Positions 9,381 to 48,890 of a stretch of DNA of 64,000 bases are shown in pieces. The stretch spans positions 51,485 to 115,484 of IMG/VR virus record IMGVR_UViG_3300033073_000410; one strand, given 5' to 3'. Made by a program: the position numbers and the translations under genes. Origin of the DNA: a virus (lineage: Duplodnaviria > Caudoviricetes). The notes beneath the pieces were generated by a model. The model did no database searches and was not told the origin of the DNA. It saw only the letters and a list, made by a program, of their open reading frames with translations. Numbering within the stretch: the stretch's first letter is position 1; each line of letters begins with the position of its first letter.

Positions 9381-9887
9381 TTATTTAAGAAACTCGTCTA
9401 TCGACAAGTCATAGTGTAAACTATTTATACGGTGTACCCCCATTAGATACAATACATAACTAGACACACTTGATCCTCTGCCCACTCCCCAAACTACGTT
9501 ATGTTTTCTCATTGTATCAACCAAATACTTTAGATAACGCAATAGCATGAACAAATCACGCTCTTGGAACTTGAGCAGTTCATCACCCACTCGTTGTAAC
9601 TCTGATTCGGTTTCGCACAAGTCTAATACGTATTTGGCAATATCAAAGTCAACATATTCTTCTGGGAGGAACCAAACACTCTGATTCTTCAAATCAAAGT
9701 TCTCTACTGAACCCGATGGCTTTTGATAGACTGAGAAACTTGGTTTGTTGTCTAAGTCCAATACCTCTGGGATTTGTAATATAGATTCAACCAATGCACG
9801 TTTGACTGTTCTATCTGGGTTTTTAAGATAGAACTCGCACAGGTCGTTTTCGGTCAATACTTGTTGACCATAGTTATCATTACGCAT
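9381..9887 (-). CDS. dnaE: DNA polymerase III alpha (DnaE)-like fragment, N-terminal half of the palm
   Basis: RVGDEL...LVDTMRKHNVVWGVGRGSSVSSYVLYLMGVHRINSLHYDLSIDEFL matches DnaE GPGRGSxAGSLVAYxLGITxxDPLxYxLxFERFL. Confidence 0.85.
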   Translation of the reverse strand: MRNDNYGQQVLTENDLCEFYLKNPDRTVKRALVESILQIPEVLDLDNKPSFSVYQKPSGSVENFDLKNQSVWFLPEEYVDFDIAKYVLDLCETESELQRVGDELLKFQERDLFMLLRYLKYLVDTMRKHNVVWGVGRGSSVSSYVLYLMGVHRINSLHYDLSIDEFLK

Positions 9888-9893
9888 TGATAT

Positions 9894-9922
9894 AGTATAA
9901 CAGGTTTATACTAGAATTTCAA
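9894..9922 (-). promoter_or_regulatory. sigma70-type promoter, predicted leaderless
   Basis: TTGAAA-N17-TATACT-N6-ATG. Confidence 0.65.
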
Positions 9923-9925
9923 CTG

Positions 9926-10540
9926 TTATGTTTCCGTTTTGTTATCAAAACTTGCGAACAACACTTCTGAATTGGGCGTTAATGTTTTGGTCTTGTTGTT
10001 GTCCCAAGCCAAATAGATATCTGACCAATCTGTTTTGGGCTTAACTAACTTAACAACTTTCTTAGAAGAATTCTTAACTTTAACATCATTGATTTTACAT
10101 GAGCATTCATTCCACCATCCGTGTGACATAAAGGGTCCGATGTTATCTTCTACTTCAACCATGCAACTTACACCATCGCTCAATGCAGAACCAATTTGAA
10201 TATCAGTGAGTAATAGTCTGCCCTCAGCGATTGCGTTTATCTTTACCATTAGCATGATACCAATCACTTGGTCATACGGATCTTCAGGTAATGAACACAC
10301 TTTTAGATTTGCACTACTATACTTTTCAATCATTTGAGTTTCTGATTGGTTGATAAAGATTGCATCAGTTAACACTTCATGTACTAAGTGTTTGATTCTT
10401 TCGAGCGCAATGTTTTGTTCTTCAATCGATTCAGTACCCACATTCATTGTCAAGTCAATGTCATATGAATTCATAAAGAACGAACCACTGAAGTACGCAC
10501 CAGCTAAGAAATTTAAGTTTGTACAAACTCTTGCTGTCAT
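9926..10540 (-). CDS. Hypothetical protein, possibly a degenerate QueD/PTPS-like T-fold
   Basis: ORF; pattern resemblance only. Confidence 0.55.
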   Translation of the reverse strand: MTARVCTNLNFLAGAYFSGSFFMNSYDIDLTMNVGTESIEEQNIALERIKHLVHEVLTDAIFINQSETQMIEKYSSANLKVCSLPEDPYDQVIGIMLMVKINAIAEGRLLLTDIQIGSALSDGVSCMVEVEDNIGPFMSHGWWNECSCKINDVKVKNSSKKVVKLVKPKTDWSDIYLAWDNNKTKTLTPNSEVLFASFDNKTET

Positions 10541-10776
10541 TTTGAACTTTCAACGTTGATTTGATTTTGGGCGTTCTGCTTTTTAAACAACTCGTCCATT
10601 TTACTAGCGTATACGGCTCTGTAGTTTTCTAGTACCATTTGAATTTGATAGACTAGTGCCGCATTGCGGGTGCGTGAGGCAAAATTGAGTTTATCCGTTA
10701 AATCAGTAATCTTCTTACCAATTTCGTCTAAACTCAACTGTGCTATTTCATTGTTATCGATGAAGGGATGTTGCAT
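10537..10776 (-). CDS. Hypothetical helical protein, 79 aa
   Basis: ORF; TAAATA 5 nt before ATG. Confidence 0.7.
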   Translation of the reverse strand: MQHPFIDNNEIAQLSLDEIGKKITDLTDKLNFASRTRNAALVYQIQMVLENYRAVYASKMDELFKKQNAQNQINVESSK

Positions 10777-10813
10777 GAAAATATTTAGTAGTCAGCAACC
10801 GGCTAAAACTATT

Positions 10814-11626
10814 TTAGCTAATAACGTATAACGGCATCCTACCCCAAATTGGTGTTTCACCGTCATATGGCCCCACGCATAGGTACATATATTGCCCGTC
10901 TGAACAGATAGTTCCGGGACCGTCACCAGGTAGACCAATCGGATCAGTGATAGAACGTAGATTCAATCCGCCTGCTTTTTGGTTTCTGTTTACTGGGTAA
11001 ATATCAAGTGTTGTTCCACAATCAAGTGATGATATATTGTACACCATTAATGACACTCCATTTGGAACTCCAGTTTGATTACTAAATACACCAGGTGCTA
11101 GATATTGAGAACCATAGTTTTCTAATTGCTGTACACTCGGAGTTGGTCCACTTAATAACTCACCTGTATCAGTATCATGGGTAGATGGAGGGAATGTAAT
11201 AACTGTACCTTCTTCCACAATTAAACGAATTTGAATTTCAGTTTGAACCACCTTGCTACCAGTAGTAGATGGCCAGTTATCAAAGTAGATAGTTACTGGT
11301 CCGGATACTGTACCATATTGTACGTCACCTTTAGAAACATCAACTACAATAGTTCCCTCTAAAGCACTACCCAAATGGTATGAACTCTTTCTGTATGTTT
11401 TAGTTTCTACGTTAGAGATTTGTCCTCCACCCATATCATTGTTAAGAGCAGTACCATTCAATGCACTTTTAACTAGGACTTTAGATTGCAAGTCTGTTAG
11501 TTCATCTTTAGTAATGTCTAAGTTGTTTTTGATTGAGCCAAAGTTGTCTCTGAATCCCTGCGAAGAATTGTTGATTCCCGGTACAGGGTAATTGATGTTC
11601 ATTCCGTTTGTGTTAATATCACTCAT
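10814..11626 (-). CDS. Baseplate/tail-fibre-associated structural protein
   Basis: N-terminal NNSSQGFRDNFGSIK attachment-like motif; C-terminal GDGPGTICSDGQYMYLCV...WGR. Confidence 0.65.
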   Translation of the reverse strand: MSDINTNGMNINYPVPGINNSSQGFRDNFGSIKNNLDITKDELTDLQSKVLVKSALNGTALNNDMGGGQISNVETKTYRKSSYHLGSALEGTIVVDVSKGDVQYGTVSGPVTIYFDNWPSTTGSKVVQTEIQIRLIVEEGTVITFPPSTHDTDTGELLSGPTPSVQQLENYGSQYLAPGVFSNQTGVPNGVSLMVYNISSLDCGTTLDIYPVNRNQKAGGLNLRSITDPIGLPGDGPGTICSDGQYMYLCVGPYDGETPIWGRMPLYVIS

Positions 11627-11646
11627 ATTATTTTTCCGTGAAGTAT

Positions 11647-13800
11647 TTAGTATGTGTTCTTGGGTAGAATCGTTTTCTCTGGGAACACGACTACCAAATC
11701 ATTTGTGTCTAGTGGATACGGTGTGGGTGTTGCGCTTGGCAATTCAGACCACCCTGGCATTGAAGTCATATATGGATTCCAGTTGAACGTACTACTCTTA
11801 TCGATAATATATCTATCGACAGTAAATTCTACTTTGTTTAACGGGAACGTAATATTATTAATGATATTATCTCTAATAGTGCTTGATGCCCCTTCTACTG
11901 TGTAGCATATGACCCAAGCAGGAATATACCCTAGAATAGAACCGTCTACTTGCTGACTAGTCATCCACTTTGGCAATATATTACTATCTAAGTTTTCACC
12001 CAACACAGAAGCAACGTGTGCTCTCATGTTTTTCAATCCAGCCGGATACAATGTTCTAACTGTGCCAGGCGATAAACTAGTATTGTATTTGTTATCAAAT
12101 GAATTGCTAGTATAGATATCTCCAGCGCCAGTATCATAAGGGCCTAAGTTTCTACTAATCGGAACTTCCCAGAAAACACTCTTACTTGATGCATCGGCTT
12201 CGTTGATAATATCACAGTATACAACTTCGTACAAAATGTTTCCATTTGTATCTTTAGCAATCGCAGTCTTTACATCACCTATTAACAAATTGATATCAGA
12301 ATGATTTCTACCCATCGCTGACAAATATGTTTCTAAACTAGTTGACTCTACCCCGTAGATGTGTACGAAAGAGACCATAGATGACTTACCAAAGTAAGGA
12401 TCTTCGGGTCTATATAATAACTCTGTAGGGAATATATTTTCATCATTCAACAAGTTATTCAATAGTTTACGCTGCGGGACTCCGGGAGCCGCTTTAATGT
12501 ATACGTTCTCGATAGGTTTGTCGTAGTACTGTTCAACAGTCAACGTGAACGTTTTAGTCCCATTCAACATATTGTAATCTGTATTATACGCTTGAACAGC
12601 AAATATGAATTCTGTTTTGTTACCAGTCTTTGTTAATGTCTCATTCGGTTGAAACGATGTTCTTCCCATGATGTGACCTGTATCTGAAATTGACAAGTTA
12701 GGTGGAAGTGATCCGTGAACTAATCTATATTGCAACGGCAAAGCTGATGTTGCTTGAATAGACAAATCACTTATAGTTCCGTTATAGATAATACCCAAGT
12801 TACTTGGTGATACCCATTCAATGTCTTGTACTACTTCTTTACGTACAGCAAAGAAATATTCAGAGAACTCACTGAAAATTGACGGGTTATCTAATTTTGC
12901 TACTCTTACATTGAACTTGTACTTACTGATACCCTTTGATGAAAGAACTGGTCTTCCACTAATCCAACCAGTTTTAGTATCACCTACTAATCCTAGAGGT
13001 AGTTCATTGTATTCGTATACAAATTCACCATTGTCAAAGTCTTTACCGATAATTTTAAATGTGATGAATGCACCACTGTCAACATAGATAGTATCCTCAT
13101 TGATTAAGTAATAATCAAAGAAAGGATCACTGCTACTCAATGGCAATGATAGTGGTCTACTATTTAAGATAACAGGTGGCCTAGTGTTAGTAGGATGCGT
13201 GAATCTATGATTGCGAACAGTGATTGAGTATATACAAGTGTGAGTACCCAATGAACTCTTAAGAGCTACTGTAAAATCGTATGTTTTAATTACTGGAATC
13301 TGACCATTAAGAGGCGGAGTCGCATATCCTCTGATTACCCCAGATGTTGTCAAGTCAAGTCCCGGTGGCAATGCCCCCGATGTAACTACCACTTCAACTT
13401 GCTCATTTAATGGGTTGGAATATTGTAGCTGAAACTCTGTCCACTTACTATCAACAATATTTAAAATCTGACCTTTAGGGGTAGTGAACGTGGGCTTTTG
13501 AATGCCTGCAACAGTAATTGAGAATGTTCTATCTTTAAAATCCCCAAACTCATCGGTAATTCTAATAGTAAAATCAAACGTAGTATCTACGTTTAACAGT
13601 TTAGGCAGACCTGAAATCAATCCTTCTGTTGATAATGATAAATCATTTACTTGACCAGTAGGCAATGATCCACTTATAATTGCAAATGTTAAATTAGTTG
13701 CAGGTGCAACTGCCGCAGCCTGCAACTGTATGCCAATGTGACTGTTAGATGGGTATGAGCCCAAGTTACCTGCATCGGTTAACCAAACTGGTTGAGCCAT
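11647..13800 (-). CDS. Baseplate wedge-like protein with Ig-like (He_PIG-type) repeats
   Basis: Repeated SGSLPxGLxLxxxGxIxGxP units; C-terminal LPKWM...GYIPAWVICY. Confidence 0.7.
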   Translation of the reverse strand: MAQPVWLTDAGNLGSYPSNSHIGIQLQAAAVAPATNLTFAIISGSLPTGQVNDLSLSTEGLISGLPKLLNVDTTFDFTIRITDEFGDFKDRTFSITVAGIQKPTFTTPKGQILNIVDSKWTEFQLQYSNPLNEQVEVVVTSGALPPGLDLTTSGVIRGYATPPLNGQIPVIKTYDFTVALKSSLGTHTCIYSITVRNHRFTHPTNTRPPVILNSRPLSLPLSSSDPFFDYYLINEDTIYVDSGAFITFKIIGKDFDNGEFVYEYNELPLGLVGDTKTGWISGRPVLSSKGISKYKFNVRVAKLDNPSIFSEFSEYFFAVRKEVVQDIEWVSPSNLGIIYNGTISDLSIQATSALPLQYRLVHGSLPPNLSISDTGHIMGRTSFQPNETLTKTGNKTEFIFAVQAYNTDYNMLNGTKTFTLTVEQYYDKPIENVYIKAAPGVPQRKLLNNLLNDENIFPTELLYRPEDPYFGKSSMVSFVHIYGVESTSLETYLSAMGRNHSDINLLIGDVKTAIAKDTNGNILYEVVYCDIINEADASSKSVFWEVPISRNLGPYDTGAGDIYTSNSFDNKYNTSLSPGTVRTLYPAGLKNMRAHVASVLGENLDSNILPKWMTSQQVDGSILGYIPAWVICYTVEGASSTIRDNIINNITFPLNKVEFTVDRYIIDKSSTFNWNPYMTSMPGWSELPSATPTPYPLDTNDLVVVFPEKTILPKNTY

Positions 13801-13803
13801 GAA

Positions 13804-14433
13804 TTATCCTTGATGTTGAAGTAGATCCAACACTAAATGATAGTGGTGTTGTCTGTCTTCCAAACCAATTGTACCTCCATTGATACGTTTTGTTAATGTA
13901 ACAAAATCGTCTTTGTCGCAATATTGATTCAAATTATTGTTATCCCAGAACCAACCAGCAGAGCTAACAGCACCAGCAGGTGTTTCTAAGTATGCAACAG
14001 TTTCTTCGATTGAGATACCCAAATCTTCAGCAAACTTTGTATAGTTAGCACGACCAGTCAATTGAATCAAGCCACGGCCACAGAAACGATATCCGTCGCC
14101 ACTTGCTTCGTCACCGTTGTTCATGCGATTGGCATAAACACGATTAGCAATCTTCTCTGGTTGACGCTCATATGCTTTCGCTGTTGCTTCATCAGGGAAG
14201 TACTTTTTGAAAGTACCCATCAAACCCTTTGCGCCATAGTTCAAATTTTCTTTAACAAAGTTAAAGCCACCTGATTCATGCGCTACTTGTGCTAAGAAAC
14301 CTGCAATACGATGTGGGTTATCATACATGTCATAGTATTCTGCTACTTCATGTAGTGGTTCAGCATACAATTCTAATACTGAACGTTTTGTCTTTGGGCA
14401 TAGTGCCTGTAATAATTCTACTGTTACTCTCAT
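13804..14433 (-). CDS. Glycoside hydrolase family 19 lysozyme/endolysin
   Basis: FLAQVAHESGGF, ENLNY, GRGLIQLTGRANY, AGWFW, INGGTIGLEDR. Confidence 0.92.
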   Translation of the reverse strand: MRVTVELLQALCPKTKRSVLELYAEPLHEVAEYYDMYDNPHRIAGFLAQVAHESGGFNFVKENLNYGAKGLMGTFKKYFPDEATAKAYERQPEKIANRVYANRMNNGDEASGDGYRFCGRGLIQLTGRANYTKFAEDLGISIEETVAYLETPAGAVSSAGWFWDNNNLNQYCDKDDFVTLTKRINGGTIGLEDRQHHYHLVLDLLQHQG

Positions 14434-14448
14434 AACTTCTCCTTAATA

Positions 14449-17400
14449 TTATGCGTACACGCCTGTCATTGCATACCACTGTGTAGTTGATGCTGATATA
14501 AACATTAATCTTGCTCCAGGAGCTAATGGATATGATGAACCGGCTGCAATATTTTCAATAGCTACTGAACCTGAACTAGGCCATACTCTTAATGTAGCTG
14601 ATGTTGTGTTTACAATAATCACTGTCATACCTGCGCTTGCTGGCAATTTAACTCCGTCATTGACACTAGCTGTTGCACTTGTAACAATGTTAATATCTTT
14701 CGTTAACTGTGTTGCACCTGCCAGTGTTGTTCCTGCGGCTGCAACACCTCCACCTATACTTCTCAATAGATAACCACCGACGCTTAACTCTGAACCACTG
14801 TGTGAAATGTTTCCACTTACGTTTAGCGCAGTCAATGTGCCAATACTAGTCAAGTTAGTTGCAGTCACAATGTTAGGCTGTGATGTTGCAGTCACACTTG
14901 CTGATGTACCAGTTGTGTTTTGGTTCAATGTAGGTATGACTGATACGGACAATGTACCTGAAGTAATGTTACTTGCATTCATTGACTGTAATGCTGCACC
15001 GTTACCGTAGATATTACCCGTAATGTTAGCACCACTGATGTTGCCTACTACACTTAAAATACCACCGATGTTTGCGTTAGCGGTTACGATGTGATTACCA
15101 CCTACTGCATGGTCTCCTAATACGTTTACGTTGCCGCCGCCCGTTACTCTACCTAAAGCGCCTGACGCTGTTGTTAATGGACCACCTGTGATAGTCAACA
15201 CAACTTGCGTAGCGTTCGCAGAAGCTACTGATTTACCAGTCATGTTCCATGCCGCTGTATTGAAGCCAACTGTGTTCACAGATTGTCCAATGGAGAACGG
15301 AGTATAACCTTGGTCAGCATAAGTTAATGTCGCTGCCGTTGCGTTTGACGATACTGCGGTTACTACAATGTTAGACCCGATGTTTAATAATCCACCGATA
15401 TTCGTGTTTGTAGTAACGTTGTGATTACCTACAACTGCATGGTTTCCACCAACCGATGAGTTACCTGAAATACTTGCGCTACCAGTAGCTACAATATGTT
15501 GAATGCCTACGTTACCGATGTTAGCATTACCAGTGACGTTAAGTACTCCGGCAGTTGAAATGTTTCCACTGCTTATATTACCGGTTGCAACAACATGCAA
15601 TGTTCCTAGGTTACCAGTATTTGCATTCGATTGTACTGAAAGTGTTCCACTTACTGCGTGGTTTCCGCCAACAGTATGGTCGCCTGCAACCGATAAATTG
15701 CCACCGCCGACTAGCCTACCCATAACTGTTGCAGTAGCTAGAGGTCCACCTGTGATAGTGTATACTACTTGCGTTGCGTTAGCAGATATTACAGATTTGT
15801 TAATACCGTTCCAAGCACTTGGGGTGAAGCCACTTACAGTAATCAGTTGACCTACTGTGAAAGGTGTAAAGCCTTGGTCTGCGTAAGTTAGTGTAGCAGC
15901 CGTAGCATTTGATGTCGCTGTCAATACCGTAATGTTTGCACCAATTGCGTGATTACCACCTACTGCTGTATTTGATGTAACAAAGTGATTCGAACCGACA
16001 GTGTGATTGCCTGACACTAATGCAGAGCCTGTTGCTACAAAGTGAGTAGTACCTACGTTACCGATGTTGGCATTACCGGTAACAGCGATTCTACCACTAA
16101 TATTTGCATTACCACTTGCTTCAAAGTGAGTAGTACCTAAGTTACCTGTATTAGCATTACCGGTAATAGTAGCACCACCTGCAATGTTAGCATTACCACT
16201 TGCTATAAAGTGAGTAGTACCTAAGTTACCTATGTTTGCATTGCCGCTGATGTTTGCATTGCCACTTGCTACGAAGTGAGTAGTGCCCAAGTTACCTGTA
16301 TTTGCGTTACCTGAAACAAATATCTTACCTGCAATGTTAGCATTGCCACTTGCTTCAAAGTGAGTAGTGCCCAAGTTACCTGTATTTGCGTTACCTGAAA
16401 CAAATATCTTACCTGCAATGTTAGCATTACCACTTGCTTCAAGGTGTGTTGTACCTACGTTACCAACTGTAGCATTACCTGAAATAGTGGCTGCACCACT
16501 GATACTAGTATTTCCACCGACAGTATGGTCGCCAGCTAATGTCAAGTTGCCGCCGCCGGCTACTCTACCTGCAACTGTTTGAGGACCTGCAGTAGTTCCT
16601 GCAAAAGTAACTGACGTAGCGTTTGCCGCAAGAACAGTTTTTGTACCGTTAAATCCAATTGGAGTTACACCCGATACAACAACAGATGCACCAACTGCAA
16701 ATGGGGTGAAGCCTTGGTCGGCAAATGTTACTGTTGAATTCCCACCTGAACTAGATGCACCTGTTGTTACTAAATTAGAACCGACGGAAACAGTTCCGCC
16801 AATCGCTGTGTTTGATGTGACATTATGATTTCCACCGATGCTCATTGCACCGTTAGATGTTACATTACCTGCGACAATGTTACCACTTGCGTTTAAATGT
16901 GTTGTGCCTACGTTACCAACTGTAGCATTGCCTGTGATGTTAGCAGAACCACTTGCGTTTAAATGTGTTGTGCCTACGTTACCAACTGTAGCATTGCCTG
17001 TGATGTTAGCAGAACCCGAAGCAACAAAGTGAGTAGTACCTAAGTTACCTGTATTAGCATTACCTGTAACAACAATCTTACCACTAATGTTAGCGTTGCC
17101 ACTTGCTTCAATGTGAGTAGTACCTAAGTTACCTGCGTTAGCGTTACCAGTTACCACAATTGCACCGCTAATGTTAGCGTTGCCACTTGCTTCGATATGT
17201 GTAGTACCAATGTTACCTGCGTTAGCGTTACCAGTAACAGACATAGCGCCACTGATGTTTGCGTTACCGCTAGCTACAACATGTGTTACACCAATGTTAC
17301 CTGCGTTAGCGTTACCTGTTACTTTTAAGATACCAGCAACGTTTGCGTTACCGGTAGCTTCAACGTGACGAATACCGATGTTACCAATGTTGGCGTTACC

Positions 17401-25050: not shown

Positions 25051-28000
25051 TTAAGCTGACAATGCCCCTGTGTTCATCAAGCGAACTGGGATGTAGATAA
25101 ATTCAGCTGCCTTCACAGGCTCGATAGCGATATCAATCCATAACTCGTTTCTATCGATACGAGCAGGAGTGTTATTGCTTGTGTCACATACAACTAGATA
25201 GTCATACAAACCACGCTTAGAGACCAAGTCAATAAACAATGATTGAACAACACCTGTCAATTGAGCACGTGTTAAGTTGTCGTTTGGTTCGAATACGAAC
25301 GGACGAGCCGCTACTTGTAGACGTTCACGGATGTAGCACACTAAACGAGCAACGTTTACACGATCCAATGAAGATTGTGAATCATAGCTTGTCTTGTTAC
25401 CGTAGTTCAACAAACCAACGCCTGTGAAGAACGCTAGTGGGTTGATTTGGTGTGAGTACAATACGTCACGAATTGACATACGGTTCTTGATAGTTTGGAA
25501 TTCACCAGTTGTGCTATCAATGTAACCAATGTTTGTAGCATTGTCGATGTTACCTCTACGTGTACCAGCAGCCGCTAACCAAGGGTAAGCGATTTGGTCA
25601 TTACGCAAGAATGTACGCAACATCATATGTGATGCTGGAACAACAACTTCTGTACCTGTCAAGTCTGTTGTAATACCGCTTGGGTAGAATACGCCCAAGT
25701 ATGTATCACGTGTAACCCAACCATCTTCACCTGTTGCTGTAGCACCCTTTGTGTTATTAGCCCAGTCAGTCAACGCAGTTGCTTGGTCTGGTAAACGTAA
25801 TGGTGTATCACCAACGATGAACGCAGTATTGTTTCTGTCGTTATTCAATGTAACCATGTCTGGTTGTAGTTCTGGATATCCAGGAGCTGCAATCAAGTTA
25901 AAGAAGTTATCTTCTTCACGAATTGTCATATTAGTTGCTACTGCTTCTTTCAATGCTTTTACAACTAGAGCACGTTGTGCCTTACGACCCATATAAGCTG
26001 AACCGTCTGACTTCAAACCACTTTCAGAAACCCATGTATATGGAACTGATGGTAGTGATTGACCTGGGAAGTCGATACCATTGAAGTAGTTAGCCTTGAA
26101 TTGCTTAACGTTGTAACCTGAACGGCGTGTGTTGAACAACAACATACCTTGTGGATAAGCAGCAGCAGAAGGAGCATCTAAATCTAAGTAGCTGTTAACT
26201 AACAAGCTAGTGATTGATGGAACTTCATCAGATACTGGGTTAACTGTACTACCTGTACCCCAACGTGCATCAGCAAATAAGATACCGCTTGAACTTGTTT
26301 GGTCTGTGTTGTCAATCAATACCCATTGATCCACAGCGTCAACTTGTTCCCAACGTGAAATCTTAGGATAGTTTTCTAAGTCGCTTGTGTCAACCCACAA
26401 ATCACCGTAAGCTAATGAAGAACCATCAACTTGTGTTGTAGGTGTGCTTGCGCTGATGATTGGACCTGTTGGGTCAGTAGATGGAACACCTGCGCTTGCT
26501 GGGTGACCATTTGAGTCGAATGCAACTGTACGATAACCTTTCCATACACCACCTTTGTTAACCATAATGTCAACTTGGTCGATAACAGAATAGAACCAAC
26601 GTGTGTCAGCTACTGGGTTTGTTGCTGGTGCGCTTGAGTTAGCAACATAATCAATCTGTTCCCAGTTACTTAATTGAACTGTATAGATTGATGTTTCGCT
26701 TACGATGCCAGATACTAAAGCAACTCTTGATACAGGACCTGTACCTGAACCGCTGATAGCTTGAACAGAAACTTTAACATCGTTTGTTGGGCTTGTGCCA
26801 CCAAATTTCTCACCAGCAATAGTGATGATATCACCTAATGCATAGTTTGCGCCACCTGAACCAGAGTTAACAATGTACTCATTACCAGAGACTGAAATGC
26901 TAAATGATGCACCAGTTGCTGTTGATGGAGAACCATCTGCATGTTCAACTGCATCCTGTGATAGGCCACTAGCAGTGAATACTGAATTGATGCCTTTTTT
27001 AACACCTAGTGTTGTACCAGTGATAAAACCAAGAGACTGAACTAAGCCAGTGCTTGTGTTTGTACCATCGCGGTCATTCAAGAAGATTTCGCCACCTAAT
27101 GTGTGAGTCAATTGAATTGCACCAGCATCAGTAACAACAGCAGTTGTGTAGGGGATACCAGTAGCTGACCAGTCAGTTACGAAACTAGCGGCTGTAGTAC
27201 CTTGTGTCACAAACGTATATGATTGTGTTGTAGTTGAACCAGGAACAGTGATACTTACTGTTAAAGATACACCTGAATCATATGAAGGATCAGTGATTGA
27301 ACCAGTAACAACTGTAGGACCTGTAGCGATTCTTTGATTTAGAACCAATGCTGCTTCAGGGTTAACACCACGTGAGTTTACTGTACCATAGATAGTACCT
27401 GCTGGAATTGCTTTACCACCAGATGAATCTAGATATGTAGAAGCAGCCACGTCACTGTAGTAAACGTTAACTGTCTTATTAACCCAAGAACCTGAAGTTG
27501 ATGAGAATTTAGCTAGAGCAATATCAAAGCCTGAACCTGCAACGCTAGTCTTAACCCATACAGAACCTGTTGGGTGAGGTTTAGCTTGACTTGCTGTCCA
27601 TAATGGCATTTGAGCACTAGTACCGAATGTAGCTTCTGGAGCATAGAATGTAGCTTCTGCGATACCCAATTGGCTCAATACATCATCGCTTGATGCGAAT
27701 GTTAGATACTTGTTAGCACCATATTGCTTGTAATATACAGTGAATACACCACCGATATTTTCAGCACGTAAGTCACCAATCTTCAAGTCATCATTGATGA
27801 TAGATACTAGTCCGTCAACTGTGTTGTTTGGGCTAGCTGGGATTGTGATTTCACGTGTAAATTGACCAGAAACGTTGATAGTGAACTTGTCACCAGCATT
27901 CAATGATGTTGGAGATTGTGTTGCTACAACTGTAGGAATGATATCTTTCCACTCTGTTGAACCTAATGCAACCCAACGGTTGAATTTGTTCTTGTAGAAG

Positions 28001-28605
28001 AATGATGACTTTTCTAGTGAAGTCTCTGCTACTTGTGTTGGAACAACAGCATAGTCACCCTTGTTACCAATACTGTCAGATGGCATCAAACCATCAATAT
28101 CAGTGTCTTTAGTGATAACTAACGGAGTCTTACCAGTGAACTTACCAGTAGTAGCGTTGAATTCATAAAGACCCCAAGAACTATTTCCTGTGTCTAACCA
28201 ATAAGTGCCGTCTGCTGGCTCACCAACTGGGCGACTTACTTTACCTACTAAACTTGCTAAGTCAACGTCTGCACGTAGAACAAAGCAACTATTTGTTGTA
28301 CCCAACAATGAATAAGCAGCCATTAAGCCGTATTCATTCAATTCATATCCATGAATTGGAGTACCGTTCGTTGTCTTGTAGAAGAACGGGTTACCGAATA
28401 ATGTTACCAAATCACGTTGGCTTGTTACTTGATAAAGTTTGTTTGCATTTACTGCGGTAGTAGCTGTTGCTACACCTGTTCCTGCAGGATTAGCTTTGTT
28501 TTGTGCTGTTGCTAATACGACAAGTGGAACTGAATTTGAGGCTGAAGGTAGATACTGACTTTGGTCAATGATGTTAACTTCAATACCTGGTGATACTAAT
28601 GCCAT
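25051..28605 (-). CDS. Contractile tail sheath protein (gp18-like), 1184 aa
   Basis: LVSPGIEV start, FGNP, YPWLAAAG, INP, RVNVARL, FEPND, VVCDTSNN, PVKAAEFI. Confidence 0.95.
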   Translation of the reverse strand: MALVSPGIEVNIIDQSQYLPSASNSVPLVVLATAQNKANPAGTGVATATTAVNANKLYQVTSQRDLVTLFGNPFFYKTTNGTPIHGYELNEYGLMAAYSLLGTTNSCFVLRADVDLASLVGKVSRPVGEPADGTYWLDTGNSSWGLYEFNATTGKFTGKTPLVITKDTDIDGLMPSDSIGNKGDYAVVPTQVAETSLEKSSFFYKNKFNRWVALGSTEWKDIIPTVVATQSPTSLNAGDKFTINVSGQFTREITIPASPNNTVDGLVSIINDDLKIGDLRAENIGGVFTVYYKQYGANKYLTFASSDDVLSQLGIAEATFYAPEATFGTSAQMPLWTASQAKPHPTGSVWVKTSVAGSGFDIALAKFSSTSGSWVNKTVNVYYSDVAASTYLDSSGGKAIPAGTIYGTVNSRGVNPEAALVLNQRIATGPTVVTGSITDPSYDSGVSLTVSITVPGSTTTQSYTFVTQGTTAASFVTDWSATGIPYTTAVVTDAGAIQLTHTLGGEIFLNDRDGTNTSTGLVQSLGFITGTTLGVKKGINSVFTASGLSQDAVEHADGSPSTATGASFSISVSGNEYIVNSGSGGANYALGDIITIAGEKFGGTSPTNDVKVSVQAISGSGTGPVSRVALVSGIVSETSIYTVQLSNWEQIDYVANSSAPATNPVADTRWFYSVIDQVDIMVNKGGVWKGYRTVAFDSNGHPASAGVPSTDPTGPIISASTPTTQVDGSSLAYGDLWVDTSDLENYPKISRWEQVDAVDQWVLIDNTDQTSSSGILFADARWGTGSTVNPVSDEVPSITSLLVNSYLDLDAPSAAAYPQGMLLFNTRRSGYNVKQFKANYFNGIDFPGQSLPSVPYTWVSESGLKSDGSAYMGRKAQRALVVKALKEAVATNMTIREEDNFFNLIAAPGYPELQPDMVTLNNDRNNTAFIVGDTPLRLPDQATALTDWANNTKGATATGEDGWVTRDTYLGVFYPSGITTDLTGTEVVVPASHMMLRTFLRNDQIAYPWLAAAGTRRGNIDNATNIGYIDSTTGEFQTIKNRMSIRDVLYSHQINPLAFFTGVGLLNYGNKTSYDSQSSLDRVNVARLVCYIRERLQVAARPFVFEPNDNLTRAQLTGVVQSLFIDLVSKRGLYDYLVVCDTSNNTPARIDRNELWIDIAIEPVKAAEFIYIPVRLMNTGALSA

Positions 28606-28728
28606 GTTAAATTTCCTTTATGTTATGATTGTGAGGGTTAACGCCCTAGTTCGTAATTATATTTAGCGAAAATTTTAAAAAAGCACCAATAACCGTACCT
28701 TCGAAGGCTATTCTTGAGTAAATAGAGT

Positions 28729-29070
28729 ATGAGACCAATATGTAAACACTGCAACAAGAACCCATGTGCAGTGAACTATGTCAAGCATGGAGTGACGCAT
28801 TATCGCAGTATGTGTGATGTATGTGGTCGCAAAAAACACAAAGAGAAACCAAGAAAGCCTACTTGGCATAAGTCGGGCTACAAGAAAAAAGCCACATGTG
28901 ACTTGTGTGGCTTTAAGAGTCAGTTCCCCAGTCAAATGACTGTGTTTCACATAGACGGGGATTTAGAAAATACTCAATTAACTAATCTACGTTCTATCTG
29001 TCTCAACTGTGTTGAGGTGGTTAAGAAGAAAGAAGTTAACTGGCGTCGGGGTGATTTAGAAGTTGATTGA
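28729..29070 (+). CDS. Zinc-finger/HNH-like protein
   Basis: CxxC pairs and HIDGDLENxxxxNLxxICxNC. Confidence 0.7.
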   Translation: MRPICKHCNKNPCAVNYVKHGVTHYRSMCDVCGRKKHKEKPRKPTWHKSGYKKKATCDLCGFKSQFPSQMTVFHIDGDLENTQLTNLRSICLNCVEVVKKKEVNWRRGDLEVD

Positions 29071-29683
29071 TTTGCTCATGTAGGTCAATGATTGTCCCAT
29101 CATTTCTGATAATGTGGTCATATTTTAATCCCACCGAACTATATTCACTTGCATGAACATTGTTAGTATCTAGTACCCGTTTTCCCAAAGACCATCCGGC
29201 ATTTCCGTTAGGTCCACGATTGTAATCAACTGCTGCTTGATACCAAACAGGATTGTCACCTCTCATGACCCTGCAGGTCGTGCCACCTGCGTTTTTGATA
29301 GCATTTACTTCATTGGCAAAGCGACAGTCAGTAATTACAATATCGTCTTTGGCATTGCGTAATTTGTTTTCAACTGAGGCAACCCAGATATCAGTATGAA
29401 AGTGGTTTCTGAATACGTCTGTTCCCCAGAACTGTAATACCCAGCGGGGAGTTAGATTGGGCATTGCTAGTCGTTCTGCCCACCAAGTATCTACTTCTTC
29501 ACGCCATTGTCTGCTGGCTTTAGTAGTGCCCTCTAGCATTTCTCTGTCCCAGCCGAAGACTGCTGAAACTGCATCTTTGAGACTGGCTGCGAATGAAACT
29601 CGCTTGAAGCCATGCTCAGTAACCAAATAATCTGCGATAGTGTCTTTGCCGGAGCCTATCAGTCCTGTAACGCCTAGAATCAT
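29036..29683 (-). CDS. Deoxynucleoside monophosphate kinase (T4 gp1-like)
   Basis: GLIGSGKDT, SFAASLK, PRWVLQFWGTD, ITDCRFANE, HASE. Confidence 0.9.
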   Translation of the reverse strand: MILGVTGLIGSGKDTIADYLVTEHGFKRVSFAASLKDAVSAVFGWDREMLEGTTKASRQWREEVDTWWAERLAMPNLTPRWVLQFWGTDVFRNHFHTDIWVASVENKLRNAKDDIVITDCRFANEVNAIKNAGGTTCRVMRGDNPVWYQAAVDYNRGPNGNAGWSLGKRVLDTNNVHASEYSSVGLKYDHIIRNDGTIIDLHEQINQLLNHPDAS

Positions 29684-29730
29684 ATAGCTACTTATTATAC
29701 TAGACTTTAGTACGAATAAAAGTATTTAGG

Positions 29731-41735: not shown

Positions 41736-41736
41736 A

Positions 41737-43006: not shown

Positions 43007-43442
43007 AATGAATATTCCTTAATTCTGAACTCGAATCTAAAAAGTTGGGCAATTTGTCCCATTCCCCGAGATTCTTAATCATAGGCACACCGTCACAGTC
43101 AGAGTATAATGCGCCCAAGTCGTTGATTCCGTCACTATATACGTTGTCATAATTGACGGTAAAATCGAACGTCCAGGCCATTTGTGCTTCCTCTTGGTCG
43201 AACAAAAAGCCAAACATATCTATATCATCAAACACGATAATCTCTTGTGTGGGAATAGTTATATCTTCGGGCTGTGTCCTCAATGAGATAACTTGAATTA
43301 TAGTGTCAAAGTTACTTTGACTGTTTCTGTTCTTCTCCCACTCAGATACTTTTTCTAAGGGTATACCAGCCGGAGTTCTGCGGTTAGGTACCCCGGTTTT
43401 GTTAATGTTAAACAATGTGGTACATCTAATCTTGGTTGTCAT
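42993..43442 (-). CDS. Hypothetical late protein
   Basis: ORF; TATAAATA 5 nt before ATG. Confidence 0.7.
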   Translation of the reverse strand: MTTKIRCTTLFNINKTGVPNRRTPAGIPLEKVSEWEKNRNSQSNFDTIIQVISLRTQPEDITIPTQEIIVFDDIDMFGFLFDQEEAQMAWTFDFTVNYDNVYSDGINDLGALYSDCDGVPMIKNLGEWDKLPNFLDSSSELRNIHFEII

Positions 43443-43460
43443 ACTGATATTTATAGCGGT

Positions 43461-43491
43461 AAAAAAGCCCCTAGATTTTAGGGGCTGTTTT
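43461..43491 (-). terminator. Intrinsic terminator
   Basis: AGCCCCTA stem followed by a T-tract on the minus strand. Confidence 0.8.
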
Positions 43492-43509
43492 AATTAACTT
43501 ACGTTAATA

Positions 43510-43788
43510 TTAGAATGTTACGTCAGCAACAGTGAAAGTTGCGCCACCAGCAGACAAGCTACCGTTTTCAACGCCTTGACCTTCAACCAACATACGAACT
43601 ACGTCAGAAACGCCAGCTTCGAATGCGCCAATCATCATAATTGTGTTCAATTGAGCAACTGAAGTTACCAAAGCATCTAATTCTGCTTGAGTAATGTTTG
43701 TCTTAGAGAAAGACTTCAATGAGTATTCTTGACGACCAACTGCTGAGAATGGACCTGTTTGTCCGTGTACACGATTTGTATAAGCCAT
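43510..43788 (-). CDS. Small abundant virion protein (capsid-decoration-like?)
   Basis: Has its own late promoter, 5' hairpin, AAGGA RBS and terminator. Confidence 0.55.
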   Translation of the reverse strand: MAYTNRVHGQTGPFSAVGRQEYSLKSFSKTNITQAELDALVTSVAQLNTIMMIGAFEAGVSDVVRMLVEGQGVENGSLSAGGATFTVADVTF

Positions 43789-43833
43789 GATATTTTCCTT
43801 TAAAAGTTGAATCCTATAGATTCATACACTTAT

Positions 43834-44082
43834 TTATGCCTCTTCGTCATTTTTCTTGAGGCTCTTGGCGAACCTAGACTGGTCCCTAGCTTTGATTGCG
43901 CTCAGTAATTTACGCTCTAAAATCTGTGCTTTTTCAGGATCATAGTGCTTGTTAATCATTTCGATTAAGTTGATGGCACTAGTGATAATGTTGTGGGCAC
44001 GGCTTTCGATGATGTGCTTGGTATCTCGGTTTTTACCAAGGTCTTCTAATTCTTCGAGCAGGCTACGGGTTTTGCGTTGCAT
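43834..44082 (-). CDS. Hypothetical protein, 82 aa
   Basis: ORF with late box. Confidence 0.7.
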   Translation of the reverse strand: MQRKTRSLLEELEDLGKNRDTKHIIESRAHNIITSAINLIEMINKHYDPEKAQILERKLLSAIKARDQSRFAKSLKKNDEEA

Positions 44083-44106
44083 AATTAAGTCCCTATTTTA
44101 TATTTA

Positions 44107-45564
44107 TCACTTTTTCAGATTGTTTAGCATTGCTCTGAGTTTTGAACCCTGAACGTCTACTACAACTTTCTTTTCTAGGGGCTGTAAAACTTCCCCTGTA
44201 GTCTGGTCAATAATCGGTTCACTAGAAGTCAATGTTGCTTGAGGTTTCAACTGACTCATAATGTCGTTGGGGCTAGGACTTGGTCTATACTTGGCTTGCT
44301 GTTCAGCATATCCGTCAGGATCTGAGTCTGAAATACGCATAGTTTCCATATCATAGTCCAAGTCAATCTTCATACCTACACCAGTAGAACTACGTGACTT
44401 CATACATTGAATCTGATACTTACCACGTTCACGCATACTACGTGAAGTGAAGATACCGAACACGTTATCCGCTGTGTTAATCTTTGAGATACCACCTGCA
44501 ATGTGACTGTGGTCGAATTCAATTTCGTCAACAGCACTACGGTTCAACTGACTAGCTGTAACTAACAAGATTCCCATCTCTTTCGCTAAGTTACGTAATT
44601 CTTCTGCTACATACTTGTCTTTAATAAACTGGTCGTTAGGGTTAACTTTAACTGATACCGGCATCACCAAGTCAAGATAGTCAACCATAACAAAGTCAAC
44701 TTTGATACCTGTTTGAATCTGTACTTCTTTCAAGTAACTACGAATATCGTTTACGTTACTTTGTGCTGGTAATGCTTTAACACGATACTTACCTGAGTTC
44801 TTACCAACCATTCTAACTTTCAAGTCAGTAGTGTCGATATCCTTGCGAATCATCTTCGTACCAGTCTCTGTCAACATCGCATCAGTACGCAAACTTGTTA
44901 GTTCTTCTGAAAGTTCAAGTGTGATGTAAACACCGCTCATACCTACTTGCAACCAGTTCAAAGCCAAGTTCATCATAACAAGAGACTTACCTGAACCTGA
45001 GCCACCTGCAAAGATATTCAGTTCACCACGGCTCATGCCACCATAGAGAATCTTATCCATCTGAGGCCAACCAGTAGATACTTGTCCACCTGCGTTAAAG
45101 TATTTGTTGATACGTGCTTTAGGATCAGCAAAGTAATCGGTACCCATGTCTTTCTGTAGACTGATTTGCACAGCATCTTTGATTAGCTTCTCAACTGGTG
45201 CAAAGTCGCCCTTCTCAAGCATATCAGCTGCCTTAAGAATCGCTCGTTCTAGTTCTTGTCGTTTAGTAAACGCTTCAAATGCATCTAAGAACCAATCACT
45301 ATGTCCCTCATTGAGTTCAGGAATAGGTTCAAGTTCTACACCTGTCATCGCTTTGATTTGAGTTTGTTCAGGTAGAACTTTATACTTGTCAGTATGCTCT
45401 TTAAACATCTCCGCGACTGGGCGCAAACTCTTGTCAAAGTTTTCGCTATTCATAATGTTCATAACCCGAGTATACAACTCGGCGTTAGTTATCATCATTC
45501 GCAAGAATAGTTTTTGTACGTCTGGTGTGTATTCTATTTGTTTAGAATCCGTTTTGTTTGCCAA
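44107..45564 (-). CDS. Replicative DnaB-family helicase (T4 gp41-like)
   Basis: STGW, GGSGSGKS, ITLEL, VDYL, TASQLNR, KSR. Confidence 0.92.
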   Translation of the reverse strand: MANKTDSKQIEYTPDVQKLFLRMMITNAELYTRVMNIMNSENFDKSLRPVAEMFKEHTDKYKVLPEQTQIKAMTGVELEPIPELNEGHSDWFLDAFEAFTKRQELERAILKAADMLEKGDFAPVEKLIKDAVQISLQKDMGTDYFADPKARINKYFNAGGQVSTGWPQMDKILYGGMSRGELNIFAGGSGSGKSLVMMNLALNWLQVGMSGVYITLELSEELTSLRTDAMLTETGTKMIRKDIDTTDLKVRMVGKNSGKYRVKALPAQSNVNDIRSYLKEVQIQTGIKVDFVMVDYLDLVMPVSVKVNPNDQFIKDKYVAEELRNLAKEMGILLVTASQLNRSAVDEIEFDHSHIAGGISKINTADNVFGIFTSRSMRERGKYQIQCMKSRSSTGVGMKIDLDYDMETMRISDSDPDGYAEQQAKYRPSPSPNDIMSQLKPQATLTSSEPIIDQTTGEVLQPLEKKVVVDVQGSKLRAMLNNLKK

Positions 45565-46522
45565 TCTTCTTCCTCTGTAATTCTAGTTTTATCTTAGACA
45601 TTGTAGCATTTTGTAGTATACTAAGTAAAGTAGGTAGTTTGCCGTATTTGACTACAGCATCATTCACATCCTTAACGCCCGGTTCCCAGTTAGGTATACT
45701 TACTTAATAACCCAATTCTAATGCCCTATCTATAATCTTCATCCCAGTCTTGTCAAAGTCTGGAACTACAATAATGCGTTTATTTAATGTAGCCAATAGT
45801 TGTGCTTGCTCTGGACTAATGTCATCGTGCATAATTGCTACGCCATCGATTGACAATGCATCAAAGATGCCCTCAGTTACAATGCACACTTGCCAATCAG
45901 ATTTTTGAATATCAATGTTGAACACATAACCCGGTTGCTGGTCATTGATATACTTTGGTATTCTGTTGTCAGTAAATCTACTAGTGTGTCCTACAATCTT
46001 GTTACCATATGTGTAGGGTATGATAATACGGTTAGCATACCGTTCTTTGTCATTGGGAGTTACCATAAAGGGATAACTCGTTGGATCAATGTGCCTCTTC
46101 TGTAGATACTCTACGAAGGGTTTATGTCTTACATCATCAACGTTTAATAACTCAGCGTTGGGCAAGTCTTTTGACTTGAACTTGATACGGTCACGTTTCT
46201 TTTTGGGCTGGGTGAAGTCTAATAAGTCTTTGTTCTGTAGACTTTCTAAGTTCCATCGTTGTACTTGGTCTTCATCTGCTCCGCACCATTTTAAAAAATC
46301 TCTAGCCTTAGGGCTAATAGTTTTACCTAAAATGAAATTGCAACTAAAGCCACAATTGAAACAATGCATAACCCAGTTTGTGGGTCCATCAAACTTAATC
46401 CCACCTCGACTTCTACGGTCAGGTTTATGTCCGCGGTGTCCACAACAAACAGCGTTGAAACTTGTCCAGCCGCTACCCGTTAGTTTTTTCTTACCAGGGA
46501 TTAATGATATGATATCGAACAT
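45542..46522 (-). CDS. DNA primase (T4 gp61-like) interrupted by an in-frame TAA at 45704-45706
   Basis: Zn finger (CC...HCFNC), KYIN, TOPRIM EGIFD and PDFD; after the stop the frame continues VSIPNWEPGVKDVNDA. Confidence 0.85.
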
Positions 46523-46528
46523 ACTACT

Positions 46529-46557
46529 ATTTTAGCATAGTATGTATCAGATTACAA
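46529..46557 (-). promoter_or_regulatory. sigma70-type promoter, predicted leaderless (primase-helicase)
   Basis: TTGTAA-N17-TAAAAT-N6-ATG. Confidence 0.6.
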
Positions 46558-46570
46558 CGATATCGGTATA

Positions 46571-47323
46571 TTATCTCAATAGAATTTTGGTTGCATTACC
46601 ATTTGCACTGTCTGCAAACTTGATACGCACACGTGCGTGAAAGCCTTCGATAGTGTAGTATACAGTTCCATTCTGTGTCTCGTACACATATGGTTCACCA
46701 ATGTCATACCAATCAGTATCAGTTAGTGTGGTCCCCTCAAACTGTACATTACCAGTATAGTCAGTGAAGTAAATTTGAGTAGTTAGTAATGGGTTACCAT
46801 CTGTTAGATACTCGCCACTATAGTAAGTTACAGGTGCATAGTGTACTGCTTCTCTATGTGATTCGATAGTGATAGTATCGCTTGCTTGATGTTTAGGTTT
46901 GACACTATCAACAACTTTGATTGTACCTCTTGCACCCGAATTAGCATCAACAAAGACAGGTAAATCAAACTCACCCTCAGGGATTTCTAATGAATAGAAT
47001 CCGGGTTGAGATTCAATATCATGCAAATCATCTTGGTGAAGTTGTAATTCTGCTAGTCCTTTTAAAGGAAGCAAAGGTGTTAAGGTCTTACGGATTAGTT
47101 CAACTGTTCCGTCATGACTAATGATTCTGCAAGTAATCTCTTTGTCTGTGATATCCACAGGCTTCTGTTCCTGATTAATGAATTGGAATTGAAGTCTGTT
47201 ATCAACGCCCTTATGTAATGTTAGATTTTTAGCGTACACGGTTTGGTATCTCCTTGTTGAATCGCCAAAGTACAACACTACGGTTTGTCTTGGTATTTGA
47301 AAGTAAACTGATGTTGAGTACAC
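46571..47323 (-). CDS. Two-domain beta-rich structural-like protein
   Basis: GTG start with AGGAG RBS and late box. Confidence 0.65.
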   Translation of the reverse strand: MYSTSVYFQIPRQTVVLYFGDSTRRYQTVYAKNLTLHKGVDNRLQFQFINQEQKPVDITDKEITCRIISHDGTVELIRKTLTPLLPLKGLAELQLHQDDLHDIESQPGFYSLEIPEGEFDLPVFVDANSGARGTIKVVDSVKPKHQASDTITIESHREAVHYAPVTYYSGEYLTDGNPLLTTQIYFTDYTGNVQFEGTTLTDTDWYDIGEPYVYETQNGTVYYTIEGFHARVRIKFADSANGNATKILLR

Positions 47324-47406
47324 GAATTGGCTCCTATGCTGTATTTATGACAAATAATATATTGGGTTTGCCCAGGTGATAAATATTCCTAGTACATCTA
47401 TTTTTA

Positions 47407-47787
47407 ATGATACATAACGAATTTTTCAAGCGCCTTAGCGAAAACCACCCGTTTATCACTGTCTGCTCATATGCAGGGCAGGATTACGTGGGTATTGTCC
47501 AGAATAGGGACGATATAGTTACCACTATCTATGACTATGGGGCAATCATTGGCCCTGACCTCAGAGAGAAGTTCCTAGCACTAGGAGACATTTGGTGGTG
47601 GGAATCTAACAGATTAGTCCCAATCAATATGTTCTTAAAAGAAGAATGGGGCGTGTTCAAACCCTATCTACGAACGTTCAACAACAAAAGTTTAAACATA
47701 ATACATGGCCCCATTTGTAGTATGTTAGAATTGAATAAGCGCAAGAGCAAGCGCAAATCAATTACCCTTGTTAAAAGACTCCCGTAA
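47407..47787 (+). CDS. Hypothetical protein
   Basis: ORF; GATAAATA upstream. Confidence 0.7.
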   Translation: MIHNEFFKRLSENHPFITVCSYAGQDYVGIVQNRDDIVTTIYDYGAIIGPDLREKFLALGDIWWWESNRLVPINMFLKEEWGVFKPYLRTFNNKSLNIIHGPICSMLELNKRKSKRKSITLVKRLP

Positions 47788-48342
47788 CAAATTCATATGA
47801 ACGACAACAAGATTTGCGTAGGCGACACTATGACTTTTCTTAAACTGATATCCATCAGAACCCTTTTCCCAGACAGATTCAGAAACCGTTTTCCATGTGG
47901 AGCCAATCAAGTGGTTCTTCGCTGGGCGGATCGCCGCAAGGAACATCGCCAATCTAGGGATAGAGTTAACAGGTTCAGGCATCTTCTGAAGGCTATCATA
48001 GTGGTTAGCTAAGTGAATTAGTTGTTCGACTATCTTTCTGTCCTTCAACATATTCCAATCAGGTTCATCCATTAACTCAATCAAGTGACGTTCATCACGT
48101 ACTTTCTCATACACGTGAACGTTCAACATATCTAACTTAACATATCCGCGTTCTTCTGCTACAGTATAATCCAAGTTAGCAATGTCATTGTCACTGTCAT
48201 ACGGAATCTCAGTAACATAGATACCAGTCGCATGTTTGCGTACTGGATGCACTCTACGCATTGCCGCAGGTATATACTTGATATGTTGTAAGATATCATC
48301 ACGGTTACCGAAGTCAATATCTATGTCTGATTGAAATTTCAT
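47758..48342 (-). CDS. dnaE: DnaE-like fragment carrying the catalytic aspartates and a trimmed fingers region
   Basis: SDIDIDF, KHATGIYV, GYVKLDMLN, LAAIRPA, GYQFKKSHSVAYA. Confidence 0.87.
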   Translation of the reverse strand: MKFQSDIDIDFGNRDDILQHIKYIPAAMRRVHPVRKHATGIYVTEIPYDSDNDIANLDYTVAEERGYVKLDMLNVHVYEKVRDERHLIELMDEPDWNMLKDRKIVEQLIHLANHYDSLQKMPEPVNSIPRLAMFLAAIRPAKNHLIGSTWKTVSESVWEKGSDGYQFKKSHSVAYANLVVVHMNLLRESFNKGN

Positions 48343-48890
48343 GGGTTTACTAATTCTGCTTTCATCAATTTCTTGTATGCTTGTTGAACAACGATTGCTT
48401 GACGTTCAGCATCTTCTACAGCCTTGTGACTTGTTGTGTGTCCACCGTCTTTGAGTTTAACGTTACAAATGTCATAGATTGTACGTGTATCTCTAATGTT
48501 CCAGAAGTTCCAAGGTGCTAACTGATTGTGGTCTCTCCAAGCTGACTCCATTACAACAACGTCAAAACTTGCACCGTTACTCCATACTTTACCATTGTTA
48601 TACTTCCAGCACCACTTATACAATGTATCCATACAGTCTTTGTATGATACTCTATCTCTGTCGCCCAGTGCTTCTTCTTGTGCAGCCTCTGATTGTTCAC
48701 TCCACCAACGCAATGTATCTGGATTGATGGAACGATTAAAGATATCAGTTTGTTCTTCAATCGTGGGGCGCAATTCTATTTTATCTATAATGCCATTGCC
48801 CTTAGGGTCAAACAATACTGCACCTATTGTCAATATCACACAGTTTGGAGTCGTGTCCAAACTTTCAATGTCAATCATTATGTCAGCCAT
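48339..48890 (-). CDS. DEDDh 3'-5' exonuclease
   Basis: MIDIES, NGASFD, RDTRT, HKAVEDA. Confidence 0.88.
   Translation of the reverse strand: MADIMIDIESLDTTPNCVILTIGAVLFDPKGNGIIDKIELRPTIEEQTDIFNRSINPDTLRWWSEQSEAAQEEALGDRDRVSYKDCMDTLYKWCWKYNNGKVWSNGASFDVVVMESAWRDHNQLAPWNFWNIRDTRTIYDICNVKLKDGGHTTSHKAVEDAERQAIVVQQAYKKLMKAELVNP

Follow-up and report, generated by a model that had tools for sequence, protein, structure and literature searches.

A split minimal polymerase III alpha core in an uncultured jumbo phage, and its natural single-chain relatives

The sequence described here is a 64,000-nucleotide (nt) stretch of viral DNA (Duplodnaviria; Caudoviricetes) taken from IMG/VR record IMGVR_UViG_3300033073_000410 (positions 51,485 to 115,484), which we call the window and which makes up the last 64 kilobases (kb) of a 115-kb viral contig. 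We found that two of its open reading frames, 9381..9887 and 47758..48342, both on the minus strand, encode the two units of a minimal DNA polymerase III (Pol III) alpha core and are maintained under selection. As a class this enzyme is the smallest known form of the catalytic core of the bacterial replicase, split through its active site and found within a replisome that otherwise looks archaeo-eukaryotic or T4-like. A preliminary description of the window, made from the sequence alone, had implied that such an enzyme was new, but the same split minimal polymerase was published in 2021 and is common in group 2.2 jumbo phages (Iyer, Anantharaman, Krishnan, Burroughs and Aravind, Viruses 13:63; PMC7824862), and the window is a further, uncultured example. 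What is new here is a natural single-chain form whose modelled fold matches that of family C polymerases with a Z score of 20, the optional nature of an adjoining exonuclease gene, and a conserved neighbouring gene of late type.

The N-terminal half (N-half; 9381..9887, 168 amino acids (aa)) is the nucleotide-binding unit. It carries the first segment of the palm, including the GRGS loop that would bind the triphosphate, and its sequence ends with ...HYDLSIDEFLK, immediately ahead of the point at which the catalytic DxD stands in an undivided enzyme. The Pfam family PF07733 (Pol III alpha palm, NTPase domain) matched this protein at 34 bits, against a curated cut-off of 23.9, and the match was recovered on the contig as well; the PHROG family phrog_11127 matched it with an E-value (E) of 2e-41. 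The stretch GVGRGSS...LSIDEFL aligns with residues 409-454 of Taq Pol III alpha up to the last-but-one residue of the protein (167/168). For comparisons among relatives we assembled gene sets from the window and from IMG/VR loci, comprising 27 distinct N-halves, 51 C-terminal halves, 36 exonucleases and 45 copies of a 126-aa neighbour, and we report the ratio of nonsynonymous to synonymous substitutions (dN/dS) as the pairwise median, using only pairs with unsaturated synonymous sites. Across the N-halves, W133-G-V-G-R-G-S-S140 and E165-F166 are invariant.

The C-terminal half (C-half; 47758..48342, 194 aa), which starts with MKFQSDIDIDFG, is the metal- and template-binding unit. It opens with the catalytic DxD (D6 and D8), continues with the third aspartate, D71, and then enters a shortened fingers region with the motif FKKSHxxAY. 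The PHROG family phrog_11778 matches it with E 8e-53, and the full-length DnaE family phrog_405 aligns over positions 576-637 with its residues 46-108 (E 1e-7). The residues D6, D8, D10, K69, D71, F167, K168, H171 and Y175 are invariant. The three catalytic aspartates, the GRGS loop of the N-half and the fingers motif, all of which had been read as kept in the window, prove to be kept throughout the relatives too. An AF2 model of the C-half alone reached a pLDDT of 88.7, and its top Foldseek hits were all Pol III alpha chains, with E 4e-3, a weaker match than that of the fused form described below. When PDB chains were searched by sequence with the C-half and with its 40-member profile, no match was obtained; its link to Pol III alpha therefore rests on the PHROG profiles and the fold.

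The reduction of the C-half can be read from the spacing of its motifs. In the window protein 63 residues separate the DxD from the third aspartate and 97 separate the latter from the lysine of FKKSH, while the equivalent spacings in E. coli Pol III alpha are about 150 and about 200. This short spacing indicates that the thumb is gone and that about half of the fingers region is retained, the chain stopping at the equivalent of E. coli residue 773. This refines the preliminary description, which held that most of both thumb and fingers was missing. Features of the family C catalytic core that are present comprise a palm domain scoring above the cut-off, the three catalytic aspartates with the GS loop (G138-S139-S140) and, in the model of the natural fused homologue, a palm-plus-fingers fold, and the placement of the aspartates and of the GS loop is backed by phrog_405, by the Taq alignment and by the fold match.

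An argument that the two halves belong together comes from proteins in which they are naturally joined. When the C-half profile was searched against 1.84 billion representative proteins, we obtained 493 relatives. Nearly all of these stand alone and are about 190-215 aa long, and a single 375-aa protein (P0045) was matched over its residues 190-371. This protein and two 376-aa relatives (P0151 and P0152) come from three different metagenome samples, share 78-81% mutual identity and all carry PF07733; the genes of P0045 and P0152 lie on metagenome contigs at L123:1066-2193 and L124:519-1649. The fused form reads ...GVGRGSS...IKEFIK-DNKEGIYNIA-DFDID...KIDLL...KKTHSISYAL, that is, it holds the same two modules in the same order as the window, but as a single polypeptide in which about 10 residues (DNKEGIYNIA) bridge the point of the split. 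Residues 72-168 of the window N-half align with residues 82-180 of the fused chain (39% identity, E 3e-15), and residues 5-179 of the C-half align with residues 190-370 (40% identity, E 2e-46). On the 375-aa chain the two halves therefore lie end to end with zero overlap, as had been supposed when they were first described as complementary. Since homology to DnaE continues to residue 167 of 168 in the N-half and resumes at residue 5-6 of the C-half, there is no room for an intein, and no extra sequence that could represent split-intein halves was found at the junction, in agreement with the earlier view that the split is intein-free.

We modelled P0045 with AF2 using an alignment of the fused forms with 27 N-halves and 27 C-halves. 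The model has a pLDDT of 72.7 overall and of about 80-97 across most of the conserved core, with the first 80 residues poorly predicted. At E below 1e-3 Foldseek returned family C polymerases only. Alignment of the model with 5lew by VIA-align gave a Z score of 20.3 over 288 aligned residues with a root-mean-square deviation of 3.5, and the next families, which are the CCA-adding enzyme, Pol beta and the poly(A)/poly(U) polymerases, follow at Z 3-4 (3.9 for the nearest). Residues 79-375 of the model correspond to residues 304-800 of M. tuberculosis DnaE1, 293-830 of the Taq enzyme, 275-773 of the E. coli enzyme and 825-1288 of PolC. The existence of a natural fusion, together with a match at Z 20 that covers palm and fingers, supports the assembly of the halves into one active site, and for the window's own two proteins we infer from this modelling that they would associate in the same manner. 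A quick maximum-likelihood tree of C-halves and fused forms, rooted at the midpoint, places the three fused forms in a single clade that is nested among split C-halves deep within the family (SH-aLRT 97), which suggests that the fusion is probably secondary. The natural 375-aa chain could be expressed as a single protein for activity tests.

The two genes of the window lie 37.9 kb apart on the same strand. Among isolate records the C-half was found in 96 and the N-half in 88, in the same taxa and in nearly equal numbers; they are always separate genes in these isolates, usually 30-45 kb apart (182 kb in Atu_ph07), and several IMG/VR contigs carry both at a distance of 35-40 kb. The median dN/dS is 0.08 for the N-half and 0.16 for the C-half, values that exclude neutral decay. 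Co-occurrence and selection had both been proposed as checks on the heterodimer, and both came out in its favour. The same data bear on the idea that a captured dnaE has decayed and left the halves as its remnants, or that each half acts alone and without catalysis. Such a reading could appeal to their very small size, to the distance between the genes and to the failure of the C-half to match any solved structure by sequence, but it has to contend with strong purifying selection, with catalytic residues that are all invariant down to 57% identity, with nearly uniform lengths among the 493 library relatives, with the near-perfect co-occurrence of the halves in isolates and with the natural fusion. 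We regard it as close to refuted.

Nor were the PHP and Pol3-finger domains of a normal replicase found elsewhere on the contig. On its 115 kb neither the PHP family PF02811, searched at E up to 10, nor the Pol3-finger family PF17657 gave a match, and a PHP domain would not fit into the short N-half; the PHP domain, as first described, is absent. Compared with bacterial DnaE and PolC (structures 2hpi/3e0d/4iqj, 2hnh/5fku, 5lew/7pu7 and 3f2b), the split enzyme shares the Pol-beta-fold palm, the GS loop, the three catalytic aspartates and the first part of the fingers. It differs in its size, about 360 aa in total against 1100-1400, and in having no PHP, thumb, distal fingers, HhH, OB or tau-binding domain and no clamp-binding motif, although no search was aimed at the last of these. 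It also differs in being made as two pieces, with the break falling after the FERFL-like segment and before the DxD, in carrying a glutamate in place of the FERFL arginine, and in not being the sole polymerase of its phage. Family C polymerases built from two genes that lie far apart are otherwise represented by the split DnaE of cyanobacteria, as in the dnaE-n and dnaE-c genes of Synechocystis, which Wu, Hu and Liu reportedly described in 1998 as being joined by a split intein. In that case a full-size DnaE, divided at another site, is put together by protein trans-splicing through intein halves on the two pieces, whereas the split in the window has none.

The closest counterpart is the system of group 2.2 jumbo phages, which occurs in RaK2, 121Q, PA5oct and Atu_ph07 (PMC7824862). 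As in the window, distant genes encode two standalone proteins, of which the N-terminal unit binds NTP and the C-terminal unit binds Mg and the template; the remaining Pol III domains are lacking, and a classic family B polymerase and a T4-type replisome are found alongside. The PHROG families of that system, 11127 and 11778, are those matched by the window proteins. Iyer et al. suggested that the split enzyme cooperates with the family B polymerase in one-strand synthesis or repair, and they presented it as a model for the ancestral Pol III; they do not mention an exonuclease partner (PMC7824862). The window differs in that its phage is uncultured and in the translational coupling, within its subclade, between the C-terminal unit and a DEDDh exonuclease gene.

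We propose, with a probability of about 0.6, that the two proteins form a noncovalent heterodimer which rebuilds a Pol III alpha-type palm with an active site shared by both chains, and which acts as an accessory DNA polymerase of low processivity near the replisome. In this scheme the two subunits, though not covalently linked, would come together as a single palm of the Pol-beta fold that carries a shortened fingers domain. The N-half would supply the GRGS loop that holds the triphosphate of the incoming nucleotide, and the C-half the three metal-binding aspartates D6, D8 and D71, along with the fingers helix bearing FKKSH..AY; in Pol III alpha this helix lies opposite the nascent base pair. 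The enzyme is most likely a short-patch polymerase at or near the replisome that could perform primer extension, gap filling or repair synthesis and does not serve as the main replicase. An enzyme devoid of PHP, thumb, clamp-binding, OB and tau-binding parts, in a phage that itself encodes a family B polymerase, a clamp loader, a primase and a helicase, is most likely to have an accessory role, and the non-replicative function put forward in the preliminary description appears plausible. The polymerase activity, the substrate and the biological role are those we infer from these comparisons.

Several observations weigh against this proposal. The arginine of FERFL (Taq R452) is replaced in the N-half by the invariant E165, and no residues match the NPER segment that follows FERFL, so that the loss of the junction arginines noted in the preliminary description is real. 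In Pol III alpha the FERFL and NPER arginines touch the triphosphate, and nucleotide binding may therefore differ in the split enzyme. There is no thumb to grip the primer-template duplex, and templated synthesis may thus need a partner. In addition, the N-terminal 60-80 residues have no known counterpart and are poorly modelled, and we found neither biochemistry nor later work on the split enzyme in the literature beyond the 2021 paper.

Alternatively, the heterodimer could be a nucleotidyltransferase of another kind, engaged in untemplated end addition, in the extension or tailing of RNA primers, or in the synthesis or transfer of nucleotide-derived groups, as is the case for many enzymes with the Pol-beta fold. 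The loss of the thumb and of about half of the fingers, seen in the motif spacing and the aligned ranges, and the invariant glutamate at the FERFL arginine would both be consistent with such an activity; the only structural matches outside family C, at Z 3-4, are to the CCA-adding enzyme, Pol beta and the poly(A)/poly(U) polymerases, and the family of the coupled exonuclease takes its name from an exoribonuclease. However, the FKKSH..AY fingers helix is invariant, the family C match at Z 20 spans palm and fingers and lies far above that to any other transferase, and both genes stand within blocks of DNA replication genes. We therefore consider another transferase activity unlikely, and the accessory DNA polymerase remains our preferred reading.

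The exonuclease gene (48339..48890, minus strand) encodes a 183-aa Rv2179c-like DEDDh 3'-5' exonuclease (PF16473, E 5e-34; phrog_255, E 1e-44), whose stop codon overlaps the start of the C-half through the sequence ATGA, an arrangement of translational coupling. This overlap and the extents of all three open reading frames are as first described. The DEDDh set D7, E9, D110, H155 and D160 is invariant among the exonucleases, and their median dN/dS is 0.13. In 64 of the 80 IMG/VR loci, which belong to close relatives, the gene lies upstream of the C-half and usually abuts it. In several loci other genes are inserted between the two, and whole subclades have no exonuclease in the neighbourhood. 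No exonuclease homologue was found in the whole records of Atu_ph07 (490 kb, complete) and Paride (287 kb, complete), where the genes upstream of the C-half gave no exonuclease Pfam match, or in a 95%-complete IMG/VR relative with a C-half 72% identical to that of the window; the gene is present in two other complete relatives. Its best isolate matches are in small siphoviruses without the split polymerase. Like other Rv2179c-like exonucleases (PF16473, phrog_255), the window protein is a standalone protein of about 180 aa with the DEDDh fold and residues; those of small phages occur with recombination or nuclease genes, whereas the window's gene is coupled to a polymerase fragment. The type member Rv2179c has been described as an exoribonuclease.

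Its absence from complete relatives makes the exonuclease an accessory gene of one environmental subclade and not an obligate partner, contrary to the initial view of it as a coupled part of the system. A working partnership with the polymerase within that subclade is possible. That the exonuclease has been recruited there as a true partner, with three proteins then forming a counterpart of the Pol III alpha-epsilon core that lacks PHP, seems to us doubtful; if it were so, the 375-aa single chain would stand as the smallest self-contained family C polymerase and as a tractable model of the minimal catalytic unit of the family. We are still more reserved about the idea that, in this subclade, the exonuclease and the two halves make up a three-protein proofreading mini-polymerase in the manner of Pol III alpha-epsilon. 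No proofreading domain forms part of the mini-polymerase itself, the exonuclease overlaps the C-half by ATGA in the window and in most of the close IMG/VR relatives lies upstream of it, usually abutting it, and its catalytic residues are invariant, with a dN/dS of 0.13; all of this would suit a proofreading unit. Against it stand the missing gene in complete Atu_ph07 and Paride and in the 95%-complete relative, the intervening genes of several loci, the occurrence of the nearest isolate homologues in siphoviruses that lack the split polymerase, and the loss of the PHP domain, which is the docking site of epsilon in Pol III. Such a proofreading unit is thus quite unlikely.

The genomic setting agrees with an accessory enzyme beside a T4-type replisome, the presence of which had been anticipated. 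The contig is estimated at one third of its genome, which would put the phage genome at roughly 350 kb. At the protein level its kin are jumbo phages, including Atu_ph07, PA5oct and its kin, SCTP-2, Phosso, RaK2, 121Q/PBECO4, GAP32 and others. Megablast of the C-half region against isolate phages gave no match, so that these relatives are detectable at the protein level only; the window halves are 44-52% identical to their counterparts in Atu_ph07 and PA5oct, and IMG/VR holds many nearer relatives with 56-88% identity. In GenBank records of isolates one or both pieces are often named "DNA polymerase III alpha". A family B polymerase, which the preliminary description had suggested looking for, is encoded on the same contig outside the window as an open frame of 910 aa with PF00136 (G000:C1:~27000-29700), and is presumably the main replicase.

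Replisome genes of T4 type stand beside each half. The N-half lies about 1 kb upstream of a clamp-loader gene (7415..8341, minus strand; phrog_168, E 1e-71), an order also seen in Atu_ph07 and Paride, and the block from N-half to clamp loader is syntenic out to Atu_ph07 and PA5oct-like phages. About 1.2 kb from the C-half are the genes of a primase (45704..46522, minus strand) and a DnaB-like helicase (44107..45564, minus strand), a pair for which the PHROG matches are phrog_19 (E 5e-66) and phrog_47 (E 3e-35); the block that they form with the C-half keeps its synteny throughout the clade. We also noted a gene for a GroES or T4 gp31-like co-chaperonin (8690-9094, minus strand; phrog_931 and phrog_3188), which separates the N-half from the clamp loader and has the same order in Atu_ph07.

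Facing the C-half is a gene of 126 aa (47407..47787, plus strand; phrog_11637, unknown function), which is convergent with it and overlaps its 3' end by 30 nt. Of the 80 IMG/VR loci, 77 have this gene adjoining the C-half, as do Atu_ph07 and Paride, and in the other three loci the sequence ends 81-229 nt beyond the C-half. It was found in 89 isolate records and occurs also beside the fused forms, downstream of which a virion structural gene is present as well. With a dN/dS of 0.035 (45 copies) it is the most conserved of the four genes, and its product shows the motif WWWESNR without variation and carries a basic tail, KRxSKRxSITLVKR, at the C-terminus. Nothing that would point to its fold was found in Pfam, in PDB sequences or in the ESM Atlas. 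A box of late type, GATAAATA, lies 21 nt upstream of its ATG.

The pattern NATAAATA, mostly in the form GATAAATA, corresponds to a T4-like late promoter pattern, with the first T often replaced by G or C. It occurs at 21 sites in the window, 19 of which precede a gene start by no more than 60 nt (mostly by 10-35 nt), and many of these stand before large structural genes; examples are the sites at 47378, 40700, 38398, 18832 and 9429. One site falls inside the 3' end of the N-half gene, where it would drive an 88-aa gene at 9104..9370. Because it is always adjacent to the C-half, is conserved and has a basic tail, we considered the 126-aa protein as a third subunit or a substitute for the thumb. 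We set this aside, since its gene has a late box like those of structural genes and its homologue in E. coli phage CRJP21 is annotated "structural protein"; as the whole block is syntenic, adjacency to the C-half carries little weight. The 126-aa gene is thus probably a late or virion gene that shares synteny with the C-half, and not a polymerase subunit.

No late box was found at either polymerase half. For the N-half gene a consensus scan gave a candidate sigma-70-type promoter (9894..9922, minus strand; TTGAAA, 17 nt, TG-TATACT; 10/12 matches) that stops 6 nt ahead of the ATG, and since sigma-70-type sites in this region are not above chance, its candidacy is based on position only. Halves without a late box, and with such a candidate promoter, would fit early or middle expression with the replication genes, as far as consensus matching can indicate.

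Two further observations concern the genes upstream of the C-half in the split sister clade of the fused forms (contig L129). A 200-aa gene in that position was considered as an adjacent N-half and was rejected, being unrelated. The same locus carries, a few kb upstream of the C-half, a 417-aa gene of the CCA-adding and poly(A) polymerase family (L129:3136-4389; PF01743), together with an RNase H gene.

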